A DNA stretch of 64,000 nt from Planctomycetota bacterium (GTDB lineage: Bacteria; Planctomycetota; B15-G4; SIAN01). The notes beneath the pieces were generated by a model. The model saw nothing but the letters and a program-made list of their open reading frames with translations, did no database searches and had not been told where the DNA came from. Numbering within the stretch: position 1 is the first letter of the stretch; each line of letters starts with the position of its first letter. The stretch is taken from assembly GCA_031409275.1 (NCBI GenBank), contig JANNXA010000040.1, forward strand, positions 96,001-160,000, in the 5' to 3' direction. The position numbers were made by a program, and so were the translations under genes. Shown here one piece after another: positions 36,955-57,958 of this stretch.

Positions 36955-37260
36955 TGGCGCGAAGCGAACCGCGAAGTCGACTTCGTCGCCCGCGCCGGCA
37001 AGACGCTGCTGGCGATCGAAGTGAGAAGCGGCGCCGCGAAGGGCGCGCCGCCGGGCCTGACCGCGTTCACCGCGAAGTTCCGCGGCGCGAAGGTACTGCA
37101 AGTCGGCGGCAGCGACGGCGTGTCGCTCGAAGATCTCTTGGCGAGCGAGGTGGAGACGTGGTTGGCGGGTTGGGGGGGGAAGTCCCGGGCGCGCTACGGC
37201 GCGCTGCCGCCGCCCGTCTCGAGGGTGACACGGCTCCCAACGCCGCGTTCGGGCCGGTAG
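36955..37260 (+). pseudogene. C-terminal remnant of an AAA+ ATPase / DUF4143-like protein
   Basis: After an in-frame TGA (36952-36954) the frame reads WREANREVDFVARAGKTLLAIEVRSG...GLTAF, matching the YWR...EVDF...IEVKS tail of this family. There is no room for an upstream ATPase domain. Confidence 0.65.
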
Positions 37261-37414
37261 TGCAGCAGCTCGAACCCGGTCACTCGGCCCGATGCGTGCT
37301 TCATCAGGACGACCTCGCGCGTCGTCTCCTCGCAGATCGCCTCCTTGGTGGGGTCGTCGGTCCAAATCGTGAGCGTGTGACCGGCGAGATCGTGAAACAC
37401 CCGGCCTTGTCCAT
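37194..37414 (-). pseudogene. Frameshifted DUF2283-like small antitoxin
   Basis: ATG 37414 (MDK) is one base out of frame with RVFHDLAGHTLTIWTDDPTKEAICEETTREVVLMKHASGRVTGFE. The span is 221 nt; adding one base restores MDKxRVFHD. Confidence 0.6.
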
Positions 37415-37494
37415 GTCCGCTCCCCCACCTTGATCGCATCGGTCGGATCGGCCGTGATCAAGGACCCGCCAGCCCCTTCCGGCCGAACCACCGG
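37405..37494 (-). pseudogene. C-terminal remnant of a DUF4258-like toxin partner
   Basis: Reads VVRPEGAGGSLITADPTDAIKVGERTWTR, like the LITAYPTD.IK.GE..W ending of small toxins upstream of DUF2283 genes. Overlaps the antitoxin ATG; N-terminus missing. Confidence 0.45.
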
Positions 37495-37643: not shown

Positions 37644-38030
37644 ATGGACGCTCACGACCCTTGGTGGCTTCGATCGACCCTCAACGCCAAAGCTGCGCGG
37701 CGTCTGACGACGATGGAGCCGAAGCTCTGCGTTCCGGCGGCGTCGCGGACCTACTACGCGCTGTTCCAGGCATGCATCGCTCACTTCGAAGCTGCCGGGA
37801 AGCAGGCGTCCGATTTCGGATCGAACGAGCAGCGGTGGCGCCACACGCCGGTCATGAACAACCTCAACGCGGTGCCGCGACTTTGCGCGCTTGGGAAGCA
37901 CCTCAAGTCCCTGTTCATCAAGCTGCGAAGTCGACGCGAGAATGCCGACTACGGCCCGGAGCTGCCGGAAGACGACGACGTGATCGCCGATCTCCACGAA
38001 CTGGAACGACTCCTCCCTCAACTCAAATGA
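37644..38030 (+). CDS. HEPN-domain protein (UPF0332-like), putative RNase toxin
   Basis: AASRTYYALFQA (cf. SRAYYAxF) and C-terminal RENADY (RxxADY); 128 aa, looks helical; GGAGG RBS at 37635-37639. Confidence 0.75.
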   Translation: MDAHDPWWLRSTLNAKAARRLTTMEPKLCVPAASRTYYALFQACIAHFEAAGKQASDFGSNEQRWRHTPVMNNLNAVPRLCALGKHLKSLFIKLRSRRENADYGPELPEDDDVIADLHELERLLPQLK

Positions 38031-38043
38031 ACCCGCGCCGCCG

Positions 38044-38619
38044 ATGAATGACCACCCTTCAATCGCCGAGCTCATCCTCAGTCGTTTTCGCGACGAGCGG
38101 TTCGGCCTCGACGTGACTGCCTGCCACGGAGTCGACCCTGAGACCGGCAACTCTCGGATCGAGATCCACGCGTTCCACGACGGTCGGGGCGATCGCCGTT
38201 CCGTCGAATCCCAGTTCTTCGACACCCTTGCCTCCATCGATCTCTCGGGTCAGACGGTTGATGTCGCCGGCGAACTCCACCCTGCGACGGCTACGACAGC
38301 TATCCGCGCTTCCGTGATCGCGCGAGAACTCATCCCGTCGTACATCGCGCTGCGCGCGGAGCCCTGCGCAGCGCAGCCCATCCGAGACAGATGGAGTCTT
38401 TCGTCGATCCGGACGGGAACGGCATCGCTCGAATCGAGGTCGACACATCGCATCGACTTTGCGATCCGCGATCTCTCCTCGACCGTCTTGGTAGATCTCG
38501 GCCCCCACGCTTCTAGTGGCGCATCACTCGCATGGCGTTTCAGTGGTCCACATCGTTGGACCCTGGCTTCAGACGCTGTGAACTCGCGAGACGGCAGCGA
38601 ACTCGGAGCCGCCGCATGA
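38044..38619 (+). CDS. Putative antitoxin: degenerate MNT-like N-domain plus Ser/Thr-rich aromatic tail ending ELGAAA
   Basis: Starts 13 bp after the HEPN stop; its own stop overlaps the secB-like ATG (ATGA 38616-38619). Function inferred from position and sequence pattern only. Confidence 0.55.
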   Translation: MNDHPSIAELILSRFRDERFGLDVTACHGVDPETGNSRIEIHAFHDGRGDRRSVESQFFDTLASIDLSGQTVDVAGELHPATATTAIRASVIARELIPSYIALRAEPCAAQPIRDRWSLSSIRTGTASLESRSTHRIDFAIRDLSSTVLVDLGPHASSGASLAWRFSGPHRWTLASDAVNSRDGSELGAAA

Positions 38620-39101
38620 GTTCCGCTCCAAGAGCGACAGAAGGTTTCAAGGTCCACGCGATCTTGCTCGAGCGCTCGAGTTTCGCGCGGCACCTGCAAG
38701 CCGAGTCCAAGTCAGGGACGTCCGGTGCGCAAGGACACTTCGATCTCGACGTGAAGCGGAACCTGCCGCCGACCCCCATCACTCGCCGATTCACTGAGTC
38801 ATTGACCGTCACCGCACGGGGACTCATCGGAAGCGTCGAGACTTGGAGAGCGGAAGCGACCTACCTCGGCGAATTCGAACTCGCCGAGGACTCCGAGGTG
38901 TCGATCGAGTCAGCGACCACCGTTCATGTCCCCGCACTCCTTTACGGATTCGCCCGCGAGCATCTCGCCGACCTCACCCGCAGGTCGCTCGTCGGCCAGC
39001 TGATGCTGCCGCCGATGCGATTCGTCGAAGACGAGGCGCAAGCGGAAACGGTGGCGGACGTTCCGGTGCCCACCGCCAAGAAGCAGCCGCGCAAGCGGTG
39101 A
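38616..39101 (+). CDS. SecB-like chaperone
   Basis: 161 aa; HVPALLYGFAREHLADLTRRSLVGQLMLPPMRF parallels the SecB signature P.ILFPYARE.I.....R..FP.L.L.P.NF; also KVHAILLERSSF and ATYLGEF strands. Confidence 0.8.
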   Translation: MSSAPRATEGFKVHAILLERSSFARHLQAESKSGTSGAQGHFDLDVKRNLPPTPITRRFTESLTVTARGLIGSVETWRAEATYLGEFELAEDSEVSIESATTVHVPALLYGFAREHLADLTRRSLVGQLMLPPMRFVEDEAQAETVADVPVPTAKKQPRKR

Positions 39102-39154: not shown

Positions 39155-41926
39155 TCATGGTGGATCGACGACCTCGACCCATGCGATGAGTTCCGTCGAG
39201 TAACTGCCGCCCTCCACCACCAGCTGGCGATGGAGCAGCTCGCGCTCGAGCATCGGTTCGATCGCCGCGAGCAGTCGGTGGGCATCAGCTCGCGTGGCGG
39301 ACGGAGACGCAGGTGTTCCGGCATCGAGCACGCCCGATCCGAGGCGCTCGAGTGCGACGTGACGCACGCCGTCGCCCGTCACCGCAAGCGAGACGAGTGA
39401 CGTTCGCTGCTCCGCCCCTCGCCGTTCGGACTGCACACGCCAGACGGAGAGAACGCCCGGACCGACCGGATGCCGCAGCGCGACACCAACCTCGCCGGGT
39501 TCGAGCGTCCCCGCCTTGCGGATCGCATCGGCCACCAATGGGTGGTCGAGGCCCAGCAGTTCGAGCCCGTCCTCGTTCCTCGACCGTTCGCGATCGAGCG
39601 TGAATCGCCGCGACTTAGCACCGTCGCGTTCGACAACGACGCACTCGCCGCCTTCGCGAACCTCGAGTGCTCGGCCATCGAGTTCGAGCGACGCGCTCAG
39701 GAATCTCCTCATCCGCTCCAACCCCGGCTTCACGTCCGCGAACGGCTGATAGTCATCGAGCGAGAAGCCGTCCAAGTCCTGGAACAGTTCGAATACGACC
39801 TTGCGCGCGACCCGGGCGTTGTCGAGCGCCGCCGCCAGCTCCTCCTCCGTCCGTCGCAGGTCGGGGTCGTCCAGCGCCTCGCGGTAGAGGCGGTCGTACG
39901 ACAGCCGCTCGGAAAGCTGTCCCAGCACCTGACTGCGCAAGTCCTCGGCGACGTTGCCGTGCTCGTCGACCTTGCCGAGCGTCTTCGCGATCTCGCCCAG
40001 CTTCTCGTCGAGCAGCAGGTAGATGCGCCCCTCGATCGTGTCGGAGAGGACGAGGTTGTAGACCTGCGCGGTGTGCTTCTGCCCATAGCGATGGATGCGC
40101 CCGATGCGCTGCTCCATGTCCATCGGGTTCCACGGCAAGTCGAAGTTGAAGAGGATCCTCGCGAACTGCAGGTTGATCCCCTCGCGCCCCGCTGCCGTGC
40201 AGACGAGCACTCGCGGACCGTCGGCCCGCTTGAAGCGCTTCTCCGCGGCCAGCTTGGAGCCGTGGTCGCCGCCGCGCAGGACGACGACGCCTTGGCCGGG
40301 AAACGTGCGAGTGATCTCCTGCTCCAGGAGTTCCACCGAGCCGAGGTAGGTCGCGAAGATCACGACGCGTTCCGACGGGTCCTGCCGCCACAGCTCGCCG
40401 AGGCCGCGCAACAGCTTCTCGACCTTTGTCTCGGGTTGAGTCGGGAACGCCTGCAGCAGATCGCGGATGCGCAGGCGCTCTTCGGGCAACGCGAGGTTCA
40501 CCGCCATGGCGGCCACCTCTTCGCCGCCCACTGCTGTCAGCTCACCGGCCGCGGTATCGGCCGCCTGTTCGAGTTCCTCGTCATCGAGCCGCTGGAGGAG
40601 CTTGAGCCTCAGCTCGGCGACGATCGCATCGACCTTGCCGGTGCCCACCTCATCGCGAGGGATCCCGTGCTCTTCGTGCACGAGATCGCGGGCTTCGGCG
40701 TGGAGCTGCTGGCGCGCGTCAAGGTCGAGTTCACGGTCCCTCAGGATCGCCTCATGCAGCGTCAGCATCAGCAACCGGCGTCGCAGCGTCCGGCGGACCG
40801 CGGCGAAGCTCGATGCCGCGATCTTCTGGAAGATCGTCATCACGAAGCCGAGCGCGCGCCCCTCGTTGCCGCGCCGATTCGCCAGCGCGAAGCCCTCCTT
40901 CAGGTAATCGTTCAGCGCCACGTAGAACGCGCGTTCGTCGGAGTCCATCGTGAACGACTCGGTACGCACCTGCCGACGCGCGAAGAGCGGCGCCCCATCC
41001 GGACGACACGCGTCCGCCTTCGTTCGCCGGAAGACCACGGAATTGAGTCGGTGGCGATTCTCGACCATGTCCTCCGCGCTGAGGAAGAGCGTCGGATCGA
41101 GCAGCTGCACCAGCATCCAGAAGCGGAAGTGGTCGCCCTGGTGCGGCGTCGCCGACAGCAGCAGCAGGTCGCGCGAGTGCTCCTTCAAGGCCTCGGCGAG
41201 CTTGTAGTTCTCGGTCTTGCGCGTCCGCTTGCCGCTCTGGAACGCAGAGAGGTGGTGCGCTTCGTCGAAGACCACCAGGTCCCAGCGCGGCGCGTCGAGC
41301 AGCCGCTTGATCCGCGCCGGCCTCTTCAGCGTGTCGATGCTGGCGATCAGACGGTCGTGCTTGGCGAAGGCGTTCGACTTGCGGTCGGTCACGTCCCCTT
41401 CGCTGCCGAAGACCTCGAATCCGAGCCGGAAGACCTCGTTCATCTCGCGGTGCCAGTTGTTCACCAGACCGGCCGGCACCACCATCAACGCGCGGTCGAG
41501 CTCCCCGCGGCTGGCCAGCTCGCGCAGCACCAACGCCGTCTCGATGGTTTTGCCGAGCCCTACTTCGTCGGCGACCAGGAAGCGTCGCGGGGAGGCCGTC
41601 GCGATGCGATGGGTCAGGACGACCTGATGCGGCAGCAGGTCGATCGGAGCAGCGGTCAGGGCGGCAGCACTCTCGATCAGCGGCAGCGCATGGGCCTCGT
41701 GGACCAGCCACGCCGTGCGGCGACGCGCCTCGCTCGACGCGACCCCGGCGACCACTCGGTCGGCGCGCGATTGGAACGGCTGCACCTCGGCCAGCGCGAC
41801 CTGTCGTTCACCGACGGAGAAGAAGACGCGCAGGTAGTCGTTGCGCGCAGGAGCAAGGACGACCCCCTCGCCGAGTTCGGCGTGGCGAATCCGGGCGCCG
41901 GGCACGAAATCGGGCGAGCGCTCCAT
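39155..41926 (-). CDS. SNF2/RapA-like SF2 helicase
   Basis: LLPHQ, LVADEVGLGKT, DEAHH, SATPHQG, AGREGINLQ, LPWNPMDMEQRIGRIHRYGQ. Start ATG 41926. Confidence 0.92.
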   Translation of the reverse strand: MERSPDFVPGARIRHAELGEGVVLAPARNDYLRVFFSVGERQVALAEVQPFQSRADRVVAGVASSEARRRTAWLVHEAHALPLIESAAALTAAPIDLLPHQVVLTHRIATASPRRFLVADEVGLGKTIETALVLRELASRGELDRALMVVPAGLVNNWHREMNEVFRLGFEVFGSEGDVTDRKSNAFAKHDRLIASIDTLKRPARIKRLLDAPRWDLVVFDEAHHLSAFQSGKRTRKTENYKLAEALKEHSRDLLLLSATPHQGDHFRFWMLVQLLDPTLFLSAEDMVENRHRLNSVVFRRTKADACRPDGAPLFARRQVRTESFTMDSDERAFYVALNDYLKEGFALANRRGNEGRALGFVMTIFQKIAASSFAAVRRTLRRRLLMLTLHEAILRDRELDLDARQQLHAEARDLVHEEHGIPRDEVGTGKVDAIVAELRLKLLQRLDDEELEQAADTAAGELTAVGGEEVAAMAVNLALPEERLRIRDLLQAFPTQPETKVEKLLRGLGELWRQDPSERVVIFATYLGSVELLEQEITRTFPGQGVVVLRGGDHGSKLAAEKRFKRADGPRVLVCTAAGREGINLQFARILFNFDLPWNPMDMEQRIGRIHRYGQKHTAQVYNLVLSDTIEGRIYLLLDEKLGEIAKTLGKVDEHGNVAEDLRSQVLGQLSERLSYDRLYREALDDPDLRRTEEELAAALDNARVARKVVFELFQDLDGFSLDDYQPFADVKPGLERMRRFLSASLELDGRALEVREGGECVVVERDGAKSRRFTLDRERSRNEDGLELLGLDHPLVADAIRKAGTLEPGEVGVALRHPVGPGVLSVWRVQSERRGAEQRTSLVSLAVTGDGVRHVALERLGSGVLDAGTPASPSATRADAHRLLAAIEPMLERELLHRQLVVEGGSYSTELIAWVEVVDPP

Positions 41927-41933
41927 CGACCGC

Positions 41934-42451
41934 CTACGAGATTCGTTGCAGGTGGAGGCCGACGTACGCGTCACCGTCGAGGTCGGGGCTCTTCTCCGTC
42001 GAGTCGAGGATGCGCGCCACGTCGGCCTCGGCGCCGCCGAAGAGGCAGCGACCGAGCGGCAGCAGTTCGGCGGACCGATCGACCGAGGAGCGCCAGCGGT
42101 ACGACTCGTCGGTCGAATCCATGGTGATGCGCTTGCGTCCGGAAGGCAGCCAGAAGAGGAGCGCCGCTTGGCCCGCGTAGTGGTCCTGGAACTCGAGGAT
42201 CGAGCTCCTCAGGTCCTCCTCGAGCCATCGCTCCGCGTCTGCCGCCGCCAGCGCATCGAGGCAGCCTTCGAGACCCGCGACGACCAGTGCGTCACCCGAC
42301 GTCGCCGGGAGAGTCGACGGCCACTTCGACTGCAGCCGGAAGTACTGATGCATCGACACCACCGCCGGCAGCTCGACGACGCGAGCAAGCGCTTGCGGGC
42401 TCCAGAGCAGCGACACCCCCTGCCGTTGCCAGCTCGAATGGCGAATCGTGT

Positions 42452-42455
<4 letters not shown>
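41934..42455 (-). CDS. Hypothetical protein within the defence operon
   Basis: GTG start overlaps the methyltransferase stop; ends 7 bp before the helicase ATG; globular-looking alpha/beta sequence (LVVAGLEGCLDAL). Confidence 0.75.
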
Positions 42456-45685
<3,230 letters not shown>

Positions 45686-45688
45686 GCG

Positions 45689-46720
45689 TCAGCTCCCGCC
45701 CGGCCGCGACAGCTCGAGGAACGGCACTGCGACCTCCAGCAGCGACAGCCCGCCATGGGTCAGCGTCGGGTAGCCGCCCGGGCTCTTCCACTTGCGCCGA
45801 CCCAGCACGAAGCGCCGATCGCCGTGCGCGGTCTGCAGCTGCACGTCGAGCGGTGGAACCCAGCCAGGCTCGCCGCCGGAGGCACTTCCGGAGGTGCTCT
45901 CCGTGGTCGCTGCCGAACGGCCGCTCTTGAATCGTTCCTTCAGGTACTGCGCTTGGGCCGGATCGCTGACGTCGGGGAATCCGGCGCTCTCCGCGTAGCC
46001 GTGGTCGGCGGTGATGACGAGGCGCCTGCCGGTGGTGAGCTGTCGCACCAGATGCCAGAAGGGGTCGCCGAGAAGATGGCGACTGGCCTCGTCCGCCAGT
46101 GACTTGAGCACAGGTCCGGGCCCAGCGAGGTCGTGTACCCGATCGTCGGGCCAACCATGCCAGAGGATCCAGTCCGGAGTTGCGTCGATCATCCGCGCGC
46201 ACTCCTCCCAAGGTGCGGACGTCGATTCCGTCTTCGCGCCGCGCAGGCGTCCGGTGACGCCGCTGCCGCCGCTCTCCAACGCGCTCCGACCGGAAAGACC
46301 GAGCGCCTTGGCGAAGGGCGTCGTTTCCGCGGGCAATTCGGCGGCGGTCGGCCGCGCTTGGTGGACCACGTAGCCGCGAGCCCCTGCGCCTTGCAGCAGC
46401 CACGGCAGCTCGCGCAACGAGAGCGCATCGAGGATCAGGATCGCCCGCGCCGAACGGCGTTGCTCCCACCACTCGATCAGCGCCGGCGCAGTTCGCGGCG
46501 CGGCACGCTCGTACTCGACCCAGAGGTCCCATGCCGCCGTAGCGAGGAAGAGGTCGACCGGTGCGAGCGCAGCGTCGCGTTGCGAAGCAGCTTTCGCGGC
46601 GTCGTTCGCCGACAACGGCGCCGCGAAGCGCTGCCACGCGTCGTCGAGCAGCGCCGCCCAAGCCTCCTTCGGCGAAGCGGATTGGAGCGCGCGCAGAAGC
46701 GGCAGCGGCAGCGAGGTCAC
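45689..46720 (-). CDS. Minimal PglZ-like (alkaline phosphatase superfamily) protein
   Basis: Metal-binding motifs LILDALS, PAETTP, ITADHGY and THGGLSLLEVAVP in PglZ order; only 343 aa. Confidence 0.8.
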   Translation of the reverse strand: MTSLPLPLLRALQSASPKEAWAALLDDAWQRFAAPLSANDAAKAASQRDAALAPVDLFLATAAWDLWVEYERAAPRTAPALIEWWEQRRSARAILILDALSLRELPWLLQGAGARGYVVHQARPTAAELPAETTPFAKALGLSGRSALESGGSGVTGRLRGAKTESTSAPWEECARMIDATPDWILWHGWPDDRVHDLAGPGPVLKSLADEASRHLLGDPFWHLVRQLTTGRRLVITADHGYAESAGFPDVSDPAQAQYLKERFKSGRSAATTESTSGSASGGEPGWVPPLDVQLQTAHGDRRFVLGRRKWKSPGGYPTLTHGGLSLLEVAVPFLELSRPGGS

Positions 46721-49452
46721 GACTCTTCCTTGTTGAGCGTGAGTTCGTAGGTGACGCCGTCGGGGAGCTTCTTCAGCAGATCGTTCAACTGCGCGCCGGT
46801 CATCACGCCGACCCGGATCTGGACATCCTGCACGCGCGTCCCCGTCCGGATCCCCCAGCTCTCGACCTTGCCCATCAGGTTGAGCGCCGAAGTCGCGGTC
46901 ACCGAGCTCAGCGGACGAAGCGGTCGCGGGCCTTGGAAGAGATCGCCGCTGTTGCCGGTGGCGGGTCCGGTGGGTGCCGGTGCGATCGCCCGGTCGATCA
47001 GGCGCTGCTCGTCGCTCGGAATCACGTAGCCCACGGGACGCGGCGAGTCGGGAGATGCCGTCGGGTTTGCATTCGGGGCTGCATTCGTGCCGACCATCCC
47101 CTCCGCGCGCGGGCTCGCCTGCGGCAGGCGCATGGGCGACTCGTCCAGATGACGGCCGCTGCCAAGCTTCCCGCGGATCCGTCGGTAGGTCGCGTCGGCT
47201 TCCTCGCCGGGATCGGCCTGCAGCAGCTCCATCCCGCGGAGGTCGACGGCGACTTCACCCCGCGCGCAGCACCAGAGGAGCTTCTCCTTCATCGCGGCTT
47301 CGCCGAGCCACGCAATCGACCGCGCACCACCGGGTCGTGGCTCCTGCAGTTCGCGCAGGAAGCCGCCGACCGACTTGCTCTCCTTCGCGGCCTGACGCAC
47401 CAACTCGGAGAAGTCCTCGGCCACGAAGAGATCGCGGGCGACCAGCTTGTGCACCTCTTCGGGAATCGCCGAGCCCTCGACCCGATGCGATTCGACGCGG
47501 AAGGTCGAGCGCTCTGGCTCCTGGAACGACCAGCTCTCCACGATCGCGAAACGGTCGAAGCGCTTGGCCAGGACATCGCGCAGCTGCCGCTCGTGCTTCT
47601 GCTGGAGCTTTCGGTACTCCGGGCTCTGCGCCTTCCAGGCGTCCGCCAGGTGGATGGCCCGCGCCAGGAACTTCAGCGGCGGCTCGTAGAAGAGGTTCGG
47701 GCTGCCGTCGCGTGGCACGAGGAAGCGCACCGCGTTGCGCCGCGAGCCGAGCCGGTTCCGCAGCCACTTGCCGAGGGTTGCTTGCAAGTCGCCGGACGGA
47801 GCCTCGGGCAACACCAGCAACGGGATGCGCTCGTCCCAATGGTCGGGCAGGTCGCGCTCGTCGAGGCCGCGGAACGGGTCGTTCTCCCAATCGGCGGCGA
47901 GGACGACGACCCGGAATAGCGGGATCGCCTCGTCGGAGCCGCCGATCACGTAGCGCACCTCGCGGGCGAGACGCTTCAGGTCCTCACCGCCCTCGAACAG
48001 CCGCTGGTTGCGCGCGTTGGCGAACAGCTTCGCCTGCGGATTCTCTTCCTCGCGAAAGACGAGGCGTTCGCCCTCCTCGTGGATGTTGAAGCTGTTCTCG
48101 ATGATCCGCTGCAGCTCGACCCCGAAGCCGTTGACATCGAGCGGCTTGCCGCGCGTGAGGTCGACTTGCAGCTCGGCGCGCGTTGCGCCGGCGTTGCGCA
48201 GAGCCAGCGAGCGCAGCCAGAGTGACGCGACGATCTCCTCGAGGTGGGGCACGTCCTCCTTGGGAACCGTGACGGCGTCGCGCACGGCGCTCAGGTTCCG
48301 CTGCGCCTTCTCGCGCAGCGTCTGGTACTGGAGGTTCGACACCGAGTCGAGCAGGGCGGCGACCCCGCTCTTCGTGTCGTCAAGCAGGAAGTCGGCCGGC
48401 GTGATCAGCGGCGATACCTCGCCGCGCGACTTGTAGACCGCAGCCAGCACCTTGATCAGGTCGCGCGTCTCCTGCGCCTGAGTCGCCTTCAGGACCTCGT
48501 CCTCGAGCAGCGTCATCAACGTCGGCGAGAAAGGCCACGCCTCGACGAACTCGCGGCGCACGCGCTCCTGATCGGCGGGCGCGATCCCGGCAATTCGCAG
48601 GTGGGTGTCGACGTGCGCCGTGATGAGGGTCTCGATCGATGGCGCCGCCACTTGCAACCGGTTCGTGAAGAGCCGGTGCAGCAGTAGCCGAAGACGGTCG
48701 ACGCGCTTGCGCGGGCCCTTGAAGTCGATCAGCTGCGGGTTCATCCGAGCGATCTGCTGGAAGGCGTCCGACTCGCCATTGCGTACCGAGACGACCAGCA
48801 CCAGCAGGTCGGGGTGCTCGCGCGCGATGTCGGTGAGGATCTGGACGAAGTTGAAGGCCCAGGCGCGTGCCGGGATCTGCTTGCTGTTCGAGAGCCCGTC
48901 GAACCAAGTTTGGTACTCGTCGAGGATCAGTGCCGTCGGCTGCTTGCGGAAGAGTTCGAGGAGCAGGTCCGAACCCGGCATGTCGGTCTTGCGCGCGCCC
49001 TGCGAGTCCCACATCCCGCGTACGTATTCGCCGTGCGGGTGCCTCTCGAAGAGCAGGTCCCAGAGGAACTTGAAGCTCTGGCGGTGGAGACTCTCACTGA
49101 TGACGTGCATGCCGGAGCGCAAACGCAGCGACGCCGGTCGGGGGTCAGCAAGGCGCTCGGACCACTCTGCCAGCCAGCGGCGCGTCTCCTCCGGGCTGGT
49201 CAACGCATGGTGCAGCGCCGCCAGTAGGTGCGACTTGCCGAGCCCGCGCTCACCGATCAGGACGACTGGCTTCCCCGTTCCGGGGCCGGTCGCCTCGATC
49301 GCCTGCAATACGTCAAACGTCGGATAGGTGATCGCAAGGTGCGCGGACGCAGCGATCTGGATCGCACCCGTCCTCTCGCGGTTCGAGAACTCGATCGCCG
49401 TGCCTTCGAGGCGACGGCTCTTGAACTCTTCGCGGAGCATCAGGCCGAGCAT
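46717..49452 (-). CDS. Large P-loop ATPase (DUF499/BrxC-like)
   Basis: ITYPTFD, Walker A GERGLGKSH, Walker B LILDE, WPFSP..., QETRDLIKVLA; first gene of the coupled operon. Confidence 0.8.
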   Translation of the reverse strand: MLGLMLREEFKSRRLEGTAIEFSNRERTGAIQIAASAHLAITYPTFDVLQAIEATGPGTGKPVVLIGERGLGKSHLLAALHHALTSPEETRRWLAEWSERLADPRPASLRLRSGMHVISESLHRQSFKFLWDLLFERHPHGEYVRGMWDSQGARKTDMPGSDLLLELFRKQPTALILDEYQTWFDGLSNSKQIPARAWAFNFVQILTDIAREHPDLLVLVVSVRNGESDAFQQIARMNPQLIDFKGPRKRVDRLRLLLHRLFTNRLQVAAPSIETLITAHVDTHLRIAGIAPADQERVRREFVEAWPFSPTLMTLLEDEVLKATQAQETRDLIKVLAAVYKSRGEVSPLITPADFLLDDTKSGVAALLDSVSNLQYQTLREKAQRNLSAVRDAVTVPKEDVPHLEEIVASLWLRSLALRNAGATRAELQVDLTRGKPLDVNGFGVELQRIIENSFNIHEEGERLVFREEENPQAKLFANARNQRLFEGGEDLKRLAREVRYVIGGSDEAIPLFRVVVLAADWENDPFRGLDERDLPDHWDERIPLLVLPEAPSGDLQATLGKWLRNRLGSRRNAVRFLVPRDGSPNLFYEPPLKFLARAIHLADAWKAQSPEYRKLQQKHERQLRDVLAKRFDRFAIVESWSFQEPERSTFRVESHRVEGSAIPEEVHKLVARDLFVAEDFSELVRQAAKESKSVGGFLRELQEPRPGGARSIAWLGEAAMKEKLLWCCARGEVAVDLRGMELLQADPGEEADATYRRIRGKLGSGRHLDESPMRLPQASPRAEGMVGTNAAPNANPTASPDSPRPVGYVIPSDEQRLIDRAIAPAPTGPATGNSGDLFQGPRPLRPLSSVTATSALNLMGKVESWGIRTGTRVQDVQIRVGVMTGAQLNDLLKKLPDGVTYELTLNKEES

Positions 49453-49715
49453 TCGTCAGGCTCCGTAGGTCGTGAATCGGCGGCAGGTTAGCGCGAAGCG
49501 TCCGCAGCGTCGCCGGTCTCGATCCCCTCCGGCAATGCGAAACCGTGGACTGGCGAGCGCTAGGCCGAGAAGCACCCGCTGGCGAGAGTGCGGTCACGAG
49601 CGCATCCTCCAAAGCGAGTTCGAAGCCGGTCGGTCCAGATGGTCGACTCACTGACCGTTCGATGCGGTTTTCCCTTAGCCACGCCCCCGCCACCTCCTCC
49701 CTACCACCCCCCTTC

Positions 49716-50972
49716 ATGGCCCTCGCCTCCCCCATCGCGTGGACCGACACGACTTGGAACCCGGTCACCGGGTGCGACAAGGTGAGCCCGGGCTGCACGC
49801 ACTGCTACGCCGAGCGGATGGCGACGCGGCTCGCGGCGATGGGGCAGGCCAACTACGCGCGCGGGTTCGAGCTGACGCTGCAACCGGCGATGCTGGAGCT
49901 GCCGCTCCGGTGGCGCAAGTCGCGGCGGATCTTCGTCAACTCGATGAGCGACCTGTTCCACGACGAGGTTCCGCTCGACTACGTGCGACGGGTCTTCGAC
50001 GTGATGCAGCGCGCGAGCTGGCATGAGTTCCAGGTGCTCACCAAGCGAGCGGAGCGGCTGGCGCAGGTCGCTTCGCTGCTGCCCTGGCCGCGCAACATCT
50101 GGATGGGCGTCAGCGTCGAGAGCGAGAAGTTCGTCGCGCGCATCGAGGCGCTGCGGACGGTCCCGGCGGCAGTGCGCTTCCTTTCGCTCGAGCCGCTGCT
50201 CGGGCCGCTGCCGGCGCTCGATTGGCGCGGGATCGACTGGGCGATCGTCGGTGGCGAGTCGGGGCCGGGCGCGCGGCCGCTCGACCCGGCGTGGGTGCGC
50301 GACCTGCGCGAGCAGTGCGCCGCCGCGCGCGTCCCGTTCTTCTTCAAGCAATGGGGTGGTGTGCGGAAGAAGGCGACCGGCCGCGTGCTGGATGGCCGGA
50401 CGTGGGACGAGTTGCCGACGCCCCAAGTCGATCGGAGTCCACGCGACGGCTGCATGCCGGCAGGCGTTGAATCGCGGCTTCCGCCTTTGCACTCTCACGT
50501 TCCACCGTCCCGGCCCCCTCGCTCCTCGAAGGACGCCGCCCCCATGCCCTCCTCCCCCATCCCCTCCTCCTTCGACGACTTCGAGCAGGAGCAGCGCTCC
50601 TTCGACCTGATCGATCAGCACCGCGCCGCGCTCGCCGCCGAGGCGGTGCGCATCGCGCGGGAGGCGCCGGACGCGGCCGTGGCCGGGCTCGCCGGGCTCA
50701 TCGTGACGGCGGAGGCGCCCGAGGCGGAGGCGCTGCTCGCCGCGATCGGGTTGCCGGAGGAGGCGGCGCGCAGCGGCTTCCTCGGCATCGTGCCGCGCGA
50801 GCTGGCGGCGGCGATCCTGCGCGACGTGGCGATGGAGGCGCTCGACGAGCTGGTGCGCCTCGAGGCGAAGGTGGCGGCGGGAGCGCGGCCGTTGGCGATC
50901 GTGCTGCTGGCGAAGGAGGGGCTGCGACTCGGGCTCGCGAGCTACGAAGCGGAACCGACGGCAGGTGGTTGA
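49716..50972 (+). CDS. DUF5131 (phage Gp37/Gp68-like, radical-SAM-like) protein reading through into a second hypothetical ORF
   Basis: [68 protein letters not shown] (about 50416). No stop until 50972. Confidence 0.85.
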
Positions 50973-51474: not shown

Positions 51475-54400
51475 TCACCGGAAATCACGCGACCGCGTCG
51501 CGAGCCGCCGGACCTGCTCGCTCAGGTCGGCGACGCGCTCGGCGAGCAGGTGCACCACGTCGCCGACGCGTTCCACCTTGCCCCGGACCAGCAGGAGGCG
51601 GCCGCTGATCACGGCCAGCCGATGCCTCTGTTGTTCGCGCTCGCGCACGATGACGTTGGCGACGCCGCTCTCATCCTCGAGCGTCATGAAGAGCACGCCC
51701 GACGCGGTGCCGGGCTTCTGGCGGTGCAGCACGAGGCCGGCGACGGCGGTGCGCGCGCCCTGCAGCGCGCGCGCCAGCACGCTGCACGGCGCACCGCCCA
51801 GCTGCGCCACGCGCGAACGCAGGAAGCGCAGCGGATGGGAGTGGAGCGTCAGCCCGGTCAACGCGTAGTCGGCGACGACGAGCTCCTCTTCGCGCGGCGG
51901 CGGCAAGGACGGCGCGGCCACCGTGTCGACCACCGCTTTCTCGAAGAGCGGCGCCGCTTCGCCCGCTGGCGCCGCCTGCCACCACGCCGCGCGGCGATGC
52001 GCCGCCAACGCCCCGAACGCGCCCGCCTCGGCCAGCAGGCGCGCGTCGCGCCGGGGAAGCTGCGCGCGCCGCGTCACCTCCTCCACATCGACGAAGGGCT
52101 GCTGCGCGCGCGCCGCCAGCAACCGCGCGACGCTCGCCGGCGACACGCCTTTGATCAGCTGCAATCCCAGCCGCAACGCCGGCACGGCCACTCCGCCGGC
52201 ACGGCCATCGACTTCGAGCGTCGACTCCCACGCGCTCGCAGCGACGTCGACGGCGCGCACCTCGACGCCATGCGCCCGCGCGTCGCGCACCAGCTGCGCC
52301 GGCGCATAGAAACCCATCGGCTGGCTGTTCAGCAGCGCGCAGGTCAACGCCGCCGGATGGTGGCACTTCAACCAGCACGACACCCAGGTCAGCAGCGCGA
52401 AGCTCGCCGCGTGGCTTTCGGGGAAGCCGTACTCGCCGAACCCCTTCAGCTGCTCGAAAAGGCGCCGCGCGAACTCGTCCGAGTAGCCGCGCGCCAGCAT
52501 CCCGTCGACCAGCTTCTTCTCGAAGCTCGCGATCAGGCCAGGCCGCCGCCACGCCCCCATCGCGCGCCGCAGCAGATCGGCCTCGCCCGGAGTGAAGCCG
52601 GCGGCGACCACCGCGAGCTTCATCGCCTGCTCCTGGAAGATCGGGACGCCGAGCGTCTTCTCCAGCACCGCCTTCACCGCTTCGGAGGGGTAGTCGACCC
52701 TCTCCTCGCCGGCGCGCCGTCGCAGGTAGGGATGGACCATGCCACCCTGGATCGGACCAGGCCGCACGATCGCCACCTGGATCACCAGGTCGTAGAAGCA
52801 GCGCGGCTTCAAGCGCGGCAGCATCGCCATCTGCGCACGGCTCTCGATCTGGAAGGTGCCGATGGTGTCGGCGCGCTGCACCATCGCCCAGGTCGCCGCG
52901 TCGTCCGCCGGCACGTTCGCCAGCGTGAGCTCGACGCCATGCACCGCGCGCACCAGCTCGAAACAGCGACGGATCGCGGAGAGCATCCCGAGCGCGAGGC
53001 AGTCGACCTTCAGGATCTTCAGCGCGTCGAGATCGTCCTTGTCCCACTGCAGGACGGTGCGCCCCTCCATCGCCGCGTTCTCGATCGGACAGAGCTCGTC
53101 GAGCCGTCCGCGCGTCATCACCATGCCGCCGACGTGCTGCGAGAGGTGACGCGGGAAGCCGTGCAGCTCGCGCGCCAACGCGACCACGCGACGCAAGGTC
53201 GCGTCGTGCGGATCGAAGCCCGCTTCGCGCAACGTCGCATCGGGCCAATCCGCTTCGTCCCAGCCGTGCAGCACGCCGGCCAGCCGCTCGACCTGATCGA
53301 GCGAGAGGCCAAGCGCCTTGCCGACATCGCGCACCGCGCTGCGCCCTCGCCACGTGATCACCGTGCCGGTCATCGCGCAGCTCTCGCGACCGTGACGCTC
53401 CCACAGATGCTGCAGCACCTCCTCGCGCCGCTCGTGCTCGAAGTCGATGTCGATGTCGGGCGGCTCGTTGCGATCCTTCGAAAGGAAGCGTTCGAAAAGG
53501 ACGTCGAAGCGATCGGGATCGACCGAGGTGACGCCCAGGCAGTAGCAGACCGCCGAGTTGGCCGCGCTGCCGCGCCCCTGGCAGAGGATCCCGCGCCCGC
53601 GCGCGAAGCTGACCAGCTCATGCACGGTGAGGAAGTAGCTCTCGTAGCGCAGCTCCGCGATCAAGCGCAGCTCGTGGACGAGGAGCTTCTGCACCTTGTC
53701 GGGGATGCCGCCCGGCCAGCGCGCGCGCGCGCCGGCCAGCGTCAGCTCGGTCAAGCGCGCGTGGTCGCCCTCGTCGGGATAGGTGTAGCGCAGCTCGTCG
53801 AGGCGGAAGGTGCAGTGCTCCGCCACGTCGAGCGTCCGTTCGAGCAGTTCGAGGCGGCCGCGCGACCCGCCGGCGCCGCCAGGACCGTAGAGGCGTCGCA
53901 GTTCGGCGAGCGGCCGCAGCGGGCGCACCCCTTCGGTCGGCACGCGCTCGCCGAGTTCGGCCACGGTGCAGCCGTGACGGATGGCGAGGAGCGTGTCGCG
54001 CAGCGCGCGGCGCGCCGGGTCGTGCGTCTCGACCGCGCCGGTCGCCACCAACGGCAGCCGCGTCGCCGCGGAAAGATGATCGAGGCGCGCGAGGCGAGCG
54101 CGATCGTCGGGGCCGTCGGCGAGGTTCGCGGCCAGCCACGCACGCTCGCCGAACAGCTCCTGCAGCCAACGCAGCCGCAACGCCGCGTGCGCCAGCTCCG
54201 CCGCGCCGGCCCGCGGAGCCAATGCCGCCTCGTCGGGCAATCCGATGGCGAGCAGCCCTTCCGCGTGGTCGGCGAGCAGCGCGCGATCGAGCCGCGCCTC
54301 ACCTTTCGGAGCGGCGCGTCTTCCCGCCGTGATCAAACGCGCGAGGCGCCCATAAGCCGCACGATCGGTGGCGTAGAGCAGCACGGTCGCGCCATCGATC

Positions 54401-54726
54401 AGCGCCACTTCGCTGCCGATCAGCAGCTTCAAGCGCGGGGGCTGACCGGCGGCCGGCGCCGTCGCCTGCGCCGCGACATGCGCGCGCACGACACCTGCCA
54501 ACGAACACTCGTCGGTGAGCGCGAGCGCGTGATAGTTGAGGGCCGCGGCGCGCTCCACGAGTTCGTCGGGATGGGAGGCGCCACGCTGGAAGGTGAAGTT
54601 GCTGACGCAGTGCAGCTCCGCGTAGCGCAGGAACGGTTCCGAAAGCGGCGGCGCCAGCGGCGCCTGACGTGACGGCGCCACGGTCGCCGGATGGGGATGG
54701 CGCTTCTTGCGCGGCAATTCAGGCAT
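51475..54726 (-). CDS. dnaE2: Error-prone DNA polymerase DnaE2 (ImuC)
   Basis: YAELHCVSNFTFQRGASHP, GRGSAANSAVCY, PPDIDIDFEH, FPRHLSQHVGG, YGFPESHA, C-terminal SRDFR. Confidence 0.96.
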   Translation of the reverse strand: MPELPRKKRHPHPATVAPSRQAPLAPPLSEPFLRYAELHCVSNFTFQRGASHPDELVERAAALNYHALALTDECSLAGVVRAHVAAQATAPAAGQPPRLKLLIGSEVALIDGATVLLYATDRAAYGRLARLITAGRRAAPKGEARLDRALLADHAEGLLAIGLPDEAALAPRAGAAELAHAALRLRWLQELFGERAWLAANLADGPDDRARLARLDHLSAATRLPLVATGAVETHDPARRALRDTLLAIRHGCTVAELGERVPTEGVRPLRPLAELRRLYGPGGAGGSRGRLELLERTLDVAEHCTFRLDELRYTYPDEGDHARLTELTLAGARARWPGGIPDKVQKLLVHELRLIAELRYESYFLTVHELVSFARGRGILCQGRGSAANSAVCYCLGVTSVDPDRFDVLFERFLSKDRNEPPDIDIDFEHERREEVLQHLWERHGRESCAMTGTVITWRGRSAVRDVGKALGLSLDQVERLAGVLHGWDEADWPDATLREAGFDPHDATLRRVVALARELHGFPRHLSQHVGGMVMTRGRLDELCPIENAAMEGRTVLQWDKDDLDALKILKVDCLALGMLSAIRRCFELVRAVHGVELTLANVPADDAATWAMVQRADTIGTFQIESRAQMAMLPRLKPRCFYDLVIQVAIVRPGPIQGGMVHPYLRRRAGEERVDYPSEAVKAVLEKTLGVPIFQEQAMKLAVVAAGFTPGEADLLRRAMGAWRRPGLIASFEKKLVDGMLARGYSDEFARRLFEQLKGFGEYGFPESHAASFALLTWVSCWLKCHHPAALTCALLNSQPMGFYAPAQLVRDARAHGVEVRAVDVAASAWESTLEVDGRAGGVAVPALRLGLQLIKGVSPASVARLLAARAQQPFVDVEEVTRRAQLPRRDARLLAEAGAFGALAAHRRAAWWQAAPAGEAAPLFEKAVVDTVAAPSLPPPREEELVVADYALTGLTLHSHPLRFLRSRVAQLGGAPCSVLARALQGARTAVAGLVLHRQKPGTASGVLFMTLEDESGVANVIVREREQQRHRLAVISGRLLLVRGKVERVGDVVHLLAERVADLSEQVRRLATRSRDFR

Positions 54727-54747
54727 CGATGCGCCCTCGCGACCGCC

Positions 54748-56322
54748 TCAGCAGAACGAGCCGTGGCAGAACCAGCCGCCGCCGACGCGATCGCGGAAGA
54801 GCCAGCGGCGCTGTCCGTCCGGCGCCTCGACCTCGAAGTAGTCGCGCTCCACGTCGCGCCCATCCCACCAGCCGCCCGCGACCCGCTCCGGTCCGCGCAC
54901 CACTCGCAGCCGCTCGCCGCGCGCGCCGGTCTCGGCGCAGGGCGCGCCGCGTTCGTCGCACTCGATCGCGCAAGGTTGCGGCGGCTCGATCAACGTGAAG
55001 GGACGCGCGCCCAATGGCACGGCCCACGCGGCATTCGCCCGCGCGCGGCCATCCGCCGCGGCGACGCGTGGCGCGGCCGCTTCGCAGAGCGCCTGCCAGC
55101 GAAACGCGCGCTCGGGGCGCGGATCGGCGAGCAGTTGCGCCCCTTGCACCCGCTCACGACCGAGCCGCACCGCCAGTCGATCGGCCAACGCAGTCGCCGC
55201 CCGCTCGCCATCGCGATCGCGCTGCTGCGCGAAAAGCGGCCCCTGTTCCGCGGCGCACTCCACGCGCTGCGTGACCGCCAGCCGCACCGCTTCGATCGGC
55301 CCGGGCAACGGCTGGCGCTCGAGTCGATGGGAGAGCAGCAACAGGAGCAGCTCGGGATCGCGCGTCGGCGTGGCGGGCGCCAGTTCGAGCAGCGTCGACG
55401 GGCCTCTTCTCACCGGCACGAAAGAGAAGGTGGCGCCGGCCCATGCTTCGTTGCGCCGCTCGAGCTCGAGGCACGCCGACTGCAGCAGCCGTTCGCAAGC
55501 CACGAGCAGCGGAGCGCACTCCTGCACGGCGGCGGGCAGCTCGATCTCTTCTTCCAGCCGCTCGGGCACGACGATGCGCACCAGCGGCTCTTCGAGTTCG
55601 CCCAAGAGTCGCTGCAGCTGCTGCACGAAAGCGATCGAGGTGCGCGTCGCGAGGCCGGCGCGCGGCAGCGCAAGGAGCTCGCGCAACGTTCCCACCCCCA
55701 ACGCACGGCAGGCCCCCTCCACTGCTGGTGCTGGAGCCAGCGCCTGCCACGGCAACGCAGCGAAGAGCTCGCGCGCGGCGGCCGGCTCCAGCGTGGCGTT
55801 GGGCGCGTGGCGAGGCGCCGGGTCGCCGGCGAGTTCACTGGCACGCGCCAAGGTACGCGCCGCCTCGGACGTATCGGCAACGGCGATCTGCGCGTGATGG
55901 CCGGCGCGCTGGCACGCCGCGATCACCGTCGCAACCAACGCCTGCTCGCCGCCGAAGTGGAACGCGGTGCGCCCCACTTCGAGCGCCAGCGCGGCGGTGC
56001 CAGGCGCATCGGTCGGCCCACCGTCGAGACAGACATCGGGCGTGAAGCGCAGCAGCGCCACGGCGAGCCGCGCCAGCGCGCGCGCATCGGCCGCCGGATC
56101 GGCGCGCGCCACTTGCAGGCCCGCGCAAAGCGCTCGTGCCGCCGCCACCGCCTGCCCGGCACGCACGCCGGCCGCAAGCGCGGTGGCCGTCGCCGCGACG
56201 ATGCGTTCCCGTGCACCGTCACGCACCGACAGCGCGAACGCCGTCGTCGCGAGGGCCGGGCAGGCGCGCAGCCTCCGCTCCATGGCGAAGCGCGGCAGGC
56301 GCAGGCTCATCCAACGGATCAC
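54748..56322 (-). CDS. imuB: Y-family-like accessory protein ImuB
   Basis: GVRAGQAVAAARAL, LRFTPDV, DRLAVRLG, DPRPERA, GPERVAGGWWD...RDYF, WFCHG. Start uncertain. Confidence 0.88.
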   Translation of the reverse strand: MIRWMSLRLPRFAMERRLRACPALATTAFALSVRDGARERIVAATATALAAGVRAGQAVAAARALCAGLQVARADPAADARALARLAVALLRFTPDVCLDGGPTDAPGTAALALEVGRTAFHFGGEQALVATVIAACQRAGHHAQIAVADTSEAARTLARASELAGDPAPRHAPNATLEPAAARELFAALPWQALAPAPAVEGACRALGVGTLRELLALPRAGLATRTSIAFVQQLQRLLGELEEPLVRIVVPERLEEEIELPAAVQECAPLLVACERLLQSACLELERRNEAWAGATFSFVPVRRGPSTLLELAPATPTRDPELLLLLLSHRLERQPLPGPIEAVRLAVTQRVECAAEQGPLFAQQRDRDGERAATALADRLAVRLGRERVQGAQLLADPRPERAFRWQALCEAAAPRVAAADGRARANAAWAVPLGARPFTLIEPPQPCAIECDERGAPCAETGARGERLRVVRGPERVAGGWWDGRDVERDYFEVEAPDGQRRWLFRDRVGGGWFCHGSFC

Positions 56323-57067
56323 GCGACCACTCCAGCACGATCGGATCGGCCCCCAGCGACGCCCCTCCACGACAACGCAGCGGCCTCACCTGCAGCCGGC
56401 GGTGAGCCGACTCCGTCGACGGCAGCGGCGCCACTTCGAGCCGCACTGCCGCCGGCGACGGCTGACGCGCAAAGCCGAGCGGCCGCAGCAGCAGGCCGAC
56501 CGTGCCGCCCGCTTCCGCTGCGAGCTGCAGCCGGCGCAGGGAGCGATCGTCGAGCGCGTGCAGCCAGGTGATCACGAGGTCGCAGGCACCCGAACGCAGC
56601 GCGAGGTCGACCGCCCACGCCTGCTCCTGCGCATGGCGGGGCCGCACGAAGAGGCAGCGCGTCAGGTCGACGCCCGCCTGCCGCAGCGCTGGCGGGTAGG
56701 GCACGCGACTGGGATGGATCCACGCCACGAGCCGCGCCGGCCCGACGTCGCTCGCCGTGGCCGTCAACGCCGGCAACAGTGCCTCGAGGACGCCGGCGCC
56801 TTCTGCCGCGCACAGCAGCTCATGCAATGCACCGACCTGCCAGCCGCCACCAAGCAGCGCATCGAGTTCGGCGAAACCGGTGGTCAGCGTCGTCGCGCGG
56901 GGGTTGGCCGCGTGCCGCGCGGCACCGCCGGCCCCCGCATGATGAGAGCGCTCGAGTTCTTCGAGTTGCGTGCGCAACCGGCCGAGCTCGCAGCGGCGGC
57001 GCAGCTCCTCGCGGGCGCGCTCGATCCGGTGATGGTTCGGCGTGAAGGAGTCATCCGCCGCTCTCAT
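56219..57067 (-). CDS. imuA: RecA-like ImuA protein
   Basis: TGFAELDALLGGGW..GALHEL, PYPPAL, WAVDLALRSG, LRRLQLAAE, SPAAVRL. ATG overlaps the lexA stop. Confidence 0.88.
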   Translation of the reverse strand: MRAADDSFTPNHHRIERAREELRRRCELGRLRTQLEELERSHHAGAGGAARHAANPRATTLTTGFAELDALLGGGWQVGALHELLCAAEGAGVLEALLPALTATASDVGPARLVAWIHPSRVPYPPALRQAGVDLTRCLFVRPRHAQEQAWAVDLALRSGACDLVITWLHALDDRSLRRLQLAAEAGGTVGLLLRPLGFARQPSPAAVRLEVAPLPSTESAHRRLQVRPLRCRGGASLGADPIVLEWSRDPLDEPAPAALRHGAEAARLPGPRDDGVRAVGA

Positions 57068-57726
57068 CGTCCCGCCCTCCCAAGCTGCGTGCGCACCAGC
57101 CCCACCACGCGCCCCTCGATCACCACTTGCGTGCGCGTCGGGTCGACCACGAACGGCTGCAGTCGCGCATTGGCCGGCTCGAGCACGACGCGCCGCGCCG
57201 CGCCGCGCCCGCGCCACCGGAAGCGCTTGACCGTCACCTCGTCATCGAGCCGCACCACCGCGATCTCGCCGTCGACGACGGTCGGCGTGCGCTGCACCGC
57301 AACGAGGTCGCCCGACTCGATGCCCGCGTCCACCATCGAGTCGCCACGCACGCGCAGCAGGAAGTCGGCCGGCGCACGAAACAGCGCGCCGTCGATCTCG
57401 ACCTCGCGCTCGAAGTGCTCCTGCGCGAGGATCGGCTGCCCCGCCGCCACCTCGCCGATCACCGGCAACCGGCGCACTCCGCCGCGCGCGAGAGGCGACG
57501 CGCCGCCAACGATCCCATCGAGCAGCCGCAATCCGCGCGAGCGACCCGGCTCGATCGCCACGACGCCTTTGCGCACGAGCAAACGCAGGTGCTGCGCCGC
57601 CGCCGTGGCCGACGCGAAACCAAGCCCCGCCGCGATCTCGGCGTGCGTCGGCGGGAAGCCGCGTTGCGCAAGGAAGCGGCGGATGAAGTCGAGTACCCGA
57701 ACCTGGGCGGTGGTGGGCGGGCGCAT
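57064..57726 (-). CDS. lexA: SOS repressor LexA
   Basis: Winged-HTH FPPTHAEIA..LGFAS, cleavage site VAAGQPI, catalytic GDSM and VTVKR. Confidence 0.95.
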   Translation of the reverse strand: MRPPTTAQVRVLDFIRRFLAQRGFPPTHAEIAAGLGFASATAAAQHLRLLVRKGVVAIEPGRSRGLRLLDGIVGGASPLARGGVRRLPVIGEVAAGQPILAQEHFEREVEIDGALFRAPADFLLRVRGDSMVDAGIESGDLVAVQRTPTVVDGEIAVVRLDDEVTVKRFRWRGRGAARRVVLEPANARLQPFVVDPTRTQVVIEGRVVGLVRTQLGRAGR

Positions 57727-57740
57727 GGGGCTCTCTGCGA

Positions 57741-57764
57741 AATAGTGTTCATCCAAACAGTATT
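57741..57764. promoter_or_regulatory. Putative LexA operator
   Basis: AT-rich imperfect palindrome AATAGTGTTCATCCAAACAGTATT, 15-38 bp upstream of the lexA ATG; core TGTTC-ATCC-AAACA. Confidence 0.75.
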
Positions 57765-57958
57765 CCGAGAAATCAAACGCGCAAGGCCTCTTCGCACTCC
57801 GGGGAGCGGGCGGCAACCGCGGCTTTCACCCGGGGAGGGCCCGCTCCCAGGCTCAAGCCCCCCCCCACCACGCAGCCGATGGTCGCGGACAAGAAGGAGC
57901 CAGTCGCGACGGCGCTCGCTGGCCGCCGCGCTCTCTCCGGAGGACCGCTGTGCTCGCG

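Follow-up and report, generated by a model that had tools for sequence, protein, structure and literature searches.

The stretch analyzed here (the window) comprises 64,000 nucleotides from a Planctomycetota bacterium (contig JANNXA010000040.1 of assembly GCA_031409275.1, positions 96,001 to 160,000 of the forward strand), and it contains a three-gene operon that encodes a HEPN protein, a middle protein that we call X, and a SecB-like chaperone. We propose that the three genes act as a toxin-antitoxin-chaperone (TAC) system, with X in the role of the chaperone-dependent antitoxin. The features of the cassette, in window positions, are as follows.

37644..38030, + strand: HEPN protein (class II or HEPN-T; AF0298, UPF0332 type), 128 amino acids (aa), predicted toxin
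38044..38619, + strand: X, the middle protein, whole open reading frame (ORF), 191 aa, ending ELGAAA-stop
38044..38301, + strand: X N-domain, residues 1-86, predicted alpha-beta-beta-alpha-beta, putative toxin-binding part
38329..38607, + strand: X tail, residues 96-188, variable, Ser-rich, six aromatics, resembling a chaperone-addiction domain (ChAD)
38602..38619, + strand: C-terminal L-G-A-A-A of X and stop, predicted ssrA-type ClpXP degron
38616..39101, + strand: SecB-like chaperone, 161 aa (PF02556, E 1.5e-8)

The HEPN and X ORFs are separated by 13 bases, and the stop codon of X overlaps the start codon of the SecB-like gene as ATGA. A PF02556 search of the host genome returned this gene as the sole SecB-family match. 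The contig of one sequencing run, which may be the source of the same DNA, covers the whole stretch with zero differences.

Recurrence of the cassette

A direct homologue search with window X returned only itself, and its own genome holds no paralogues; therefore, the family was approached through the chaperone. A search with the Pfam SecB profile of 401 genomes from the host phylum yielded 11 loci, 7 of which, including the window, were HEPN-X-SecB, while the other 4 comprised two loci cut by contig ends, one ART-type TAC and one Gp49/HTH-type TAC. When the same genomes were searched with a profile built from these SecBs, the yield rose to 18 loci; 9 had the HEPN-X-SecB arrangement, and one of those (G122) is broken. 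Metagenomic SecB loci were scanned with a five-sequence SecB alignment, and 80 of 186, near-copies included, were kept; HEPN and X were present in 62/80, X only in 3/80 and neither in 15/80. The 9/18 and 62/80 counts are biased toward the HEPN-X type by their queries, whereas the 7/11 obtained with the Pfam profile is unbiased. The coupling to a SecB-like chaperone suggested in the preliminary description is thus supported both by the ATGA overlap and by the repeated gene order.

With an E limit of 0.001, a profile of 49 X N-domains matched 1716 clusters in a library built at 50% identity, a count made irrespective of genomic context. Named members, which came from 4 of the 10 clusters looked up, were hypothetical proteins of Barnesiella intestinihominis, Alistipes shahii, Parabacteroides merdae and P. 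goldsteinii. The host-phylum-type and Bacteroidota-type subtypes of X are linked at hhalign E 5e-4, and window X scored 9.7 bits against a leave-one-out profile of nine other host-phylum-type X, with 0/500 shuffles as good. The assignment of window X to the family, weak by sequence, is based on its position, terminal residues and predicted element order. One X searched against plasmids gave no match, and one searched against phages gave a single partial, unannotated match. At locus L102, the genes for the small and large subunits of a phage terminase directly follow the cassette, which is thus carried by a prophage; the same probably holds for L137.

The tail and terminal Ala-Ala of X

Ser and Thr make up 16.7% and 5.2% of X residues 96-191, compared with 8.4% and 7.4% of residues 1-95, and the tail carries the aromatics Y100, W117, F139, W164, F166 and W172. 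In a single-sequence model, most of residues 73-191 fell below a predicted local distance difference test score (pLDDT) of 50, with short predicted strands, which is weak evidence of disorder. Pairwise alignment distinguished a conserved N-domain from a variable tail, with median z values of 11.0 and 0.04, respectively, for Bacteroidota-type X (105 pairs from 15/45 sequences) and of 1.5 and 0.3 for ten host-phylum-type sequences. The DNA that encodes the tail lacks the third-position GC bias of the other coding parts of the cassette. SecB, a long tail and an AA end are all missing from two HEPN-X pairs of one genome (G204) and from an orphan X (G279); for two of these three cases, the profile that detected them had been built without them. 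As sequences, they fit a modular ChAD of the kind described in Mets 2024 (bioRxiv 10.1101/2024.02.24.581848) and Vassallo 2022 (PMC9519451). Low pLDDT in the single-sequence model, unalignable tails, the six aromatics and the loss in SecB-less homologues all support the ChAD-like tail of the preliminary description.

Whether homologues share the terminal AA had been named as a check, and they do: 54/55 hand-picked X end in AA (46/47 after clustering at 60%; near-duplicates and truncated copies were excluded from the set, as was the broken G122 locus with an X that ends RKA), as do 64/65 X found by profile, the exception being a partial ORF at a contig start. Such an end could arise by chance in a single protein, but its recurrence in positional homologues could not; the background was 31/2361 crudely called long ORFs of the host genome. 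Among the best 150 library representatives, 112 end in AA, all within the 135 that are at least 110 aa long; 80 of the 150 end [YF]-x-[LIMV]-AA and 42 end YALAA.

The host tmRNA tag is ANNNLALAA; window X has the two final Ala and the -5 Leu in common with it, and the host genome carries clpX and clpP. The Bacteroides ssrA tag GETNYALAA degrades GFP, according to 10.1101/2025.03.18.644028, and the terminal AA of CmdA drives its degradation by ClpXP, according to Mets 2024 (bioRxiv 10.1101/2024.02.24.581848) and Vassallo 2024 (PMC11618068). A C-terminal ClpXP degron is present in CmdA and also in HigA1 of M. tuberculosis, although some TACs lack one. We predict that the terminal Ala-Ala of X is an ssrA-type ClpXP degron. 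A comparison of X ends with the tmRNA tag of the same genome in five genomes of the host phylum showed a close likeness in one (ANESLALAA vs ANTQLALAA, partial ORF), agreement of the last 2-3 residues in three and none in one (ends AG). With a close likeness in only 1/5 genomes, host-specific copying of the tag in this phylum is not claimed. At six SecB loci of the non-HEPN kind (L004, L027, L028, L071, L075 and L088), the upstream genes end IAA, LAA, MAA or WAA; thus, ssrA-like ends appear, from these sequences, to be common to TAC antitoxins generally.

The HEPN protein

The HEPN protein of the window had no direct Pfam match, and a homologue search with its sequence returned nothing except itself. 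Its best ESM Atlas matches were PF05168 clusters at 0.94, two homologues (L006 and L038) exceed the Pfam cut-off, and a profile of 7 HEPN homologues matched PDB 9xbd, 9xbc and 2hsb (AF0298) at E 2.9e-5 to 1.5e-3. Residues H67, R98, D102 and Y103 are invariant across 38 cassette HEPNs. The window protein has R98-x3-D102-Y103 and lacks RX4HXY and Rx4H. On these sequence features it belongs to class II (PF05168, AF0298 type), with the motif Arg kept, the canonical His absent and a conserved His upstream. For the AF0298 family, section 6 of Anantharaman 2013 (PMC3710099) predicts that an upstream His and the Arg are used as an alternative RNase site.

This assignment corrects one premise of the preliminary description, namely that the HEPN partner would normally be AMPylated: AMPylation by a minimal nucleotidyltransferase (MNT) was shown for class I HEPNs with RX4HXY. 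With no RX4HXY in the window HEPN and no GSX10DXD in X, we do not expect AMPylation to be the means of neutralization. Modules that join a class II HEPN to an MNT are abundant. PDB 9xbd and 9xbc are recent structures of a class II HEPN protein; no paper on them was found, and such a paper may report class II activity. In some Bacteroidota-type loci, a second class II HEPN gene lies directly 3' of the SecB-like gene (L069:2378-2776 and L079:2294-2683).

The N-terminal domain of X

X had been described as looking like a catalytically dead MNT fold. The segments compared with an MNT (LDVTACHG, NSRIEIHAF, RRSVESQFFDTLASI and TVDVAG) are all present in the 191-aa ORF at 38044-38619, and no GS...DxD is found in window X, in agreement with that description. 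A loose GS..[DE]x[DE] pattern matched 0/55 X and 2/150 library representatives. Two AlphaFold runs, with and without an alignment, agreed on a helix at residues 7-15, strands at 22-30 and 37-45, a helix at 51-64 and a strand at 73-80. The AF2 model based on a 40-row alignment reached pLDDT 72.9; it ends at residue 86, short of the part in which the last strand specific to MNTs would be expected. Alignments A6 and A9, in which parts of window X (P0002) or host-phylum members were misplaced, were left out of folding. Fold searches with the N-domain model returned generic KH-II/BolA/OsmC-type folds, with pol lambda and pol beta only as weak rows. The single-sequence model (pLDDT 50.9) gave ferredoxin-like and other generic folds, a set unlike that of the alignment-based model, and was set aside.

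The N-domain of window X had no Pfam, PADLOC or significant NCBIfam match; scans of X and its homologues against Pfam, PADLOC, NCBIfam and PDB sequences named no meaningful family; library scans gave no helix-turn-helix (HTH) or ribbon-helix-helix match to the core; and ESM Atlas offered no usable match. The family carries conserved polar residues. Three members (P0025, P0046 and P0070) contain two tandem N-domains each and no AA end.

Descent of this domain from an MNT is a tentative proposition. Class II HEPNs otherwise pair with GS/DxD MNTs (15 pairs and 13 more), 63 columns of the host-phylum X profile fall on the MNT profile in the expected register, and a SecB-less HEPN partner (L039) scored 6.3 bits on the MNT profile with 2/500 shuffles as good; the Foldseek rows also include pol lambda and pol beta (ranks 41 and 43; E 0.17; TMq 0.48-0.50). 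However, the hhalign match between X and MNT has a probability of 1.9% (E 0.026, score 17.1), 1/100 column-shuffled alignments equaled it and the reversed profile scored 15.6. The Bacteroidota-type X profile gave no MNT match, 224/500 shuffles scored as well as window X on the MNT profile, and Pfam MNT families (PF01909/PF18765) matched none of 47 X members at E up to 5. MNT was also missing from the top 50 of both VIA fold lists, although absence from such lists does not exclude it. Gene order is reversed, being MNT-HEPN in 28/28 canonical pairs inspected but HEPN-X in the cassettes, and an intact MNT was found next to SecB in none of the 80 metagenomic loci. The HEPN tree, a quick and unrooted one with 38/68 inner branches open, does not reveal the order of events. 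Thus, the absence of catalytic motifs stands, whereas MNT descent is not established, given generic folds and a profile match not clear of its controls. A TAC in which an enzymatic HEPN-MNT pair became stoichiometric and chaperone-addicted, with X as the dead MNT, is a reading that we hold with corresponding reserve.

MNT and KH-II/BolA cores share this topology, a point in favor of MNT descent. It is conceivable, if rather doubtful, that the X N-domain is instead an unrelated KH-II/BolA-like module that displaced the MNT gene of a TAC, its conserved His, Glu and Tyr forming a HEPN-binding surface. The fold matches that suggest this all have Z < 8, which, per the tool, may reflect only a common arrangement, and they derive from a model without the region of the MNT-specific last strand. 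At two further loci (L046:1878-2162 and L049:1148-1423), the gene after that of a class II HEPN encodes a 90-aa partner that has neither MNT motifs nor a tail, and SecB is missing; these partners scored weakly or not at all on the X and MNT profiles.

Comparison with known systems

In Sala 2013 (PMC3581621), all TACs are ordered toxin-antitoxin-chaperone, with HigA, MqsA, HicB, MqsA-like and HTH-like antitoxins. The published TACs (CmdTAC or PD-T4-9, HigBAC, MqsRAC, HicAB-type and the M. tuberculosis TAC), share with the cassette this order, with the SecB-like chaperone third, and an antitoxin with a variable, aromatic-containing C-terminal extension, ending in Ala-Ala in CmdA; two Bacteroidota-type chaperones match PADLOC PD-T4-9_C at 6e-26 and 9e-28. 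The cassette differs in that its first gene encodes a HEPN rather than a RelE/HigB, MqsR, HicA or ART toxin, that its antitoxin core is an unnamed alpha/beta domain, and that many X end in a near-complete ssrA tag and not just AA. Class II HEPN/MNT modules (PF05168 with PF01909; AF0298/2hsb) have a similar HEPN (SRxYY helix, upstream His, R-x3-D-Y) and a small alpha/beta partner of similar size and element order; X, in contrast, has no GSX10DXD, lies downstream rather than upstream, bears a tail with a degron-like end, and is accompanied by a chaperone gene of its own. The class I HepT/MntA type VII toxin-antitoxin (TA) systems of Shewanella and Legionella (PMC11586414) likewise combine a HEPN toxin, with a conserved Tyr after the Arg motif, and a small neighboring control protein, but possess the RX4HXY and GSX10DXD motifs that the cassette lacks.

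Full-text searches, judged mostly at the level of listings and abstract openings, brought up no paper on a HEPN TAC, although one could be listed in papers behind subscription, in bioRxiv supplements or in the version of Mets 2024 that appeared in a journal. The main text of Sala 2013 (PMC3581621) has 0 occurrences of HEPN; a 2026 ParA preprint and Kaur 2020 mention SecB for known TACs only; PMC13069673 contains neither SecB nor HEPN; and SecB is absent from one supplementary file of Anantharaman 2013 (PMC3710099). Scans of X and of four class II HEPNs with PADLOC 2.0 gave weak rows but no model that covers them. The HEPN-X-SecB cassette is therefore likely a new TAC variant.

Proposed mechanism and its assessment

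Because the three genes recur together, the partner nearly always ends in AA, and the order is that of known TACs, we consider that HEPN-X-SecB is a TAC system with X as its chaperone-dependent antitoxin, with a probability of roughly 0.7, the roles being assigned by position and by analogy. In such a system, the class II HEPN would act as an RNA-directed toxin, with the invariant His67 and Arg98 making up an alternative site. As X lacks a nucleotidyltransferase motif for modifying the HEPN, it would hold this toxin inactive through binding by its folded N-domain. The aromatic-studded tail would be bound by the SecB-like tetramer, keeping X soluble and its terminal Ala-Ala shielded. Titration of the chaperone, for which a phage structural protein is the likeliest agent on the example of CmdTAC and HigBAC, would leave X to be degraded by ClpXP and so free the HEPN. 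Compared with the preliminary description, the tail, the terminal AA, the chaperone coupling and the absence of MNT motifs are upheld, the MNT derivation is not established, and the AMPylation premise needs correction.

Several observations weigh against this proposal. HEPN toxicity, neutralization by binding, tail protection, ClpXP removal of X and a phage trigger are all proposed by analogy with CmdTAC and HigBAC. Yao 2020 (PMC7641770) reports class II HEPNs without toxicity or AMPylation data and calls for further study of their TA status, and a 2024 Legionella paper (PMC11586414) confines the canonical motif to class I. By sequence on its own, window X is linked only weakly to the family: of the 30572 ORFs in its genome, it ranked 8 (E 8.2) with one leave-one-out profile and 41 with another, and it gave no signal with the profile of the Bacteroidota-type set, from which the 40-row alignment for its model was drawn. 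The SecB-less, tail-less X number only three, two of them from one genome. Finally, among 76 flanking ORFs scanned of 96 from 35 loci, most named ones were housekeeping genes and a minority were terminase, restriction-modification, integrase, TA or prophage genes, so that an anti-phage role is not evident from context.

It is improbable that HEPN is not an active toxin, with X as the effector or another active enzyme, or HEPN as a non-catalytic RNA-binding regulator, and with chaperone and protease tuning X. The missing Rx4H of the window HEPN, the absence of class II toxicity data from Yao 2020, the conserved polar residues of X, its tandem-duplicated and orphan forms, and a HEPN Tyr (the AMP acceptor in class I) that is invariant although X lacks an MNT motif would favor this idea. 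However, every characterized TAC has a toxin as its first gene and a degron-bearing antitoxin as its second, and both residues of the His/Arg site predicted for the AF0298 family are invariant here. We consider it very improbable that the window copy is in decay, a relic with an X that is like the family only in where it lies: its X and HEPN lack close homologues, the profile link is weak and one family locus (G122) is visibly broken, but all three ORFs are intact and coupled, HEPN keeps its four invariant residues, and in contig pieces of another study, 7 codons of X differ synonymously and 5 non-synonymously, with no stop (depth 2-4, errors possible).

Neighboring genes

No sigma-70-type promoter match was obtained for the cassette. 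A DNA search did not find the cassette in 20 related genomes, 3 of which retain the adjacent subtilase gene, suggesting that it is mobile. A defense cluster ends 53 bases downstream of it on the opposite strand.

39155..49452, - strand: BREX/Hma-like defense cluster, convergent neighbor outside the cassette, by PADLOC and Pfam matches

This cluster encodes a DUF499-like ATPase (6.5e-5, under the cut-off), a PglZ-like protein (343 aa), a DUF1156-type methylase, a 173-aa protein that we could not name and a SNF2 helicase, with PADLOC matches to BrxHI (2.5e-96), HmaB (8.7e-39) and PglZ (0.006, weak). It is followed by a DUF5131 gene on the + strand (49545-50972 frame) and, at 51475-57816 (- strand), by a lexA-imuA-imuB-dnaE2-type mutagenesis cassette, judged by eye from ORF translations. 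Just upstream of the HEPN gene, an 81-aa ORF (37194-37439, - strand) had no Pfam match and by eye resembles a small TA-associated protein.

Implications

Our proposal, if correct, extends the TAC repertoire by a HEPN effector and by a novel family of antitoxin domains, copies of which are annotated as hypothetical in Parabacteroides, Barnesiella and Alistipes. A chaperone-addicted class II HEPN would offer a built-in switch, in that leaving out the chaperone would expose the toxin and its target. An MNT origin of X, if true, would mean that an enzymatic antitoxin had turned stoichiometric. At its broadest, and this we regard as doubtful, the cassette may represent an unnamed, large class of TACs for phage-sensing defense in gut Bacteroidota and other phyla, in which the enzymatic MNT antitoxin of class II HEPN modules lost its activity and became a scaffold that binds the toxin, equipped with a tail for chaperone addiction and a built-in version of the ssrA tag, and in which class II HEPNs would be conditional toxins with a non-canonical His/Arg RNase site.
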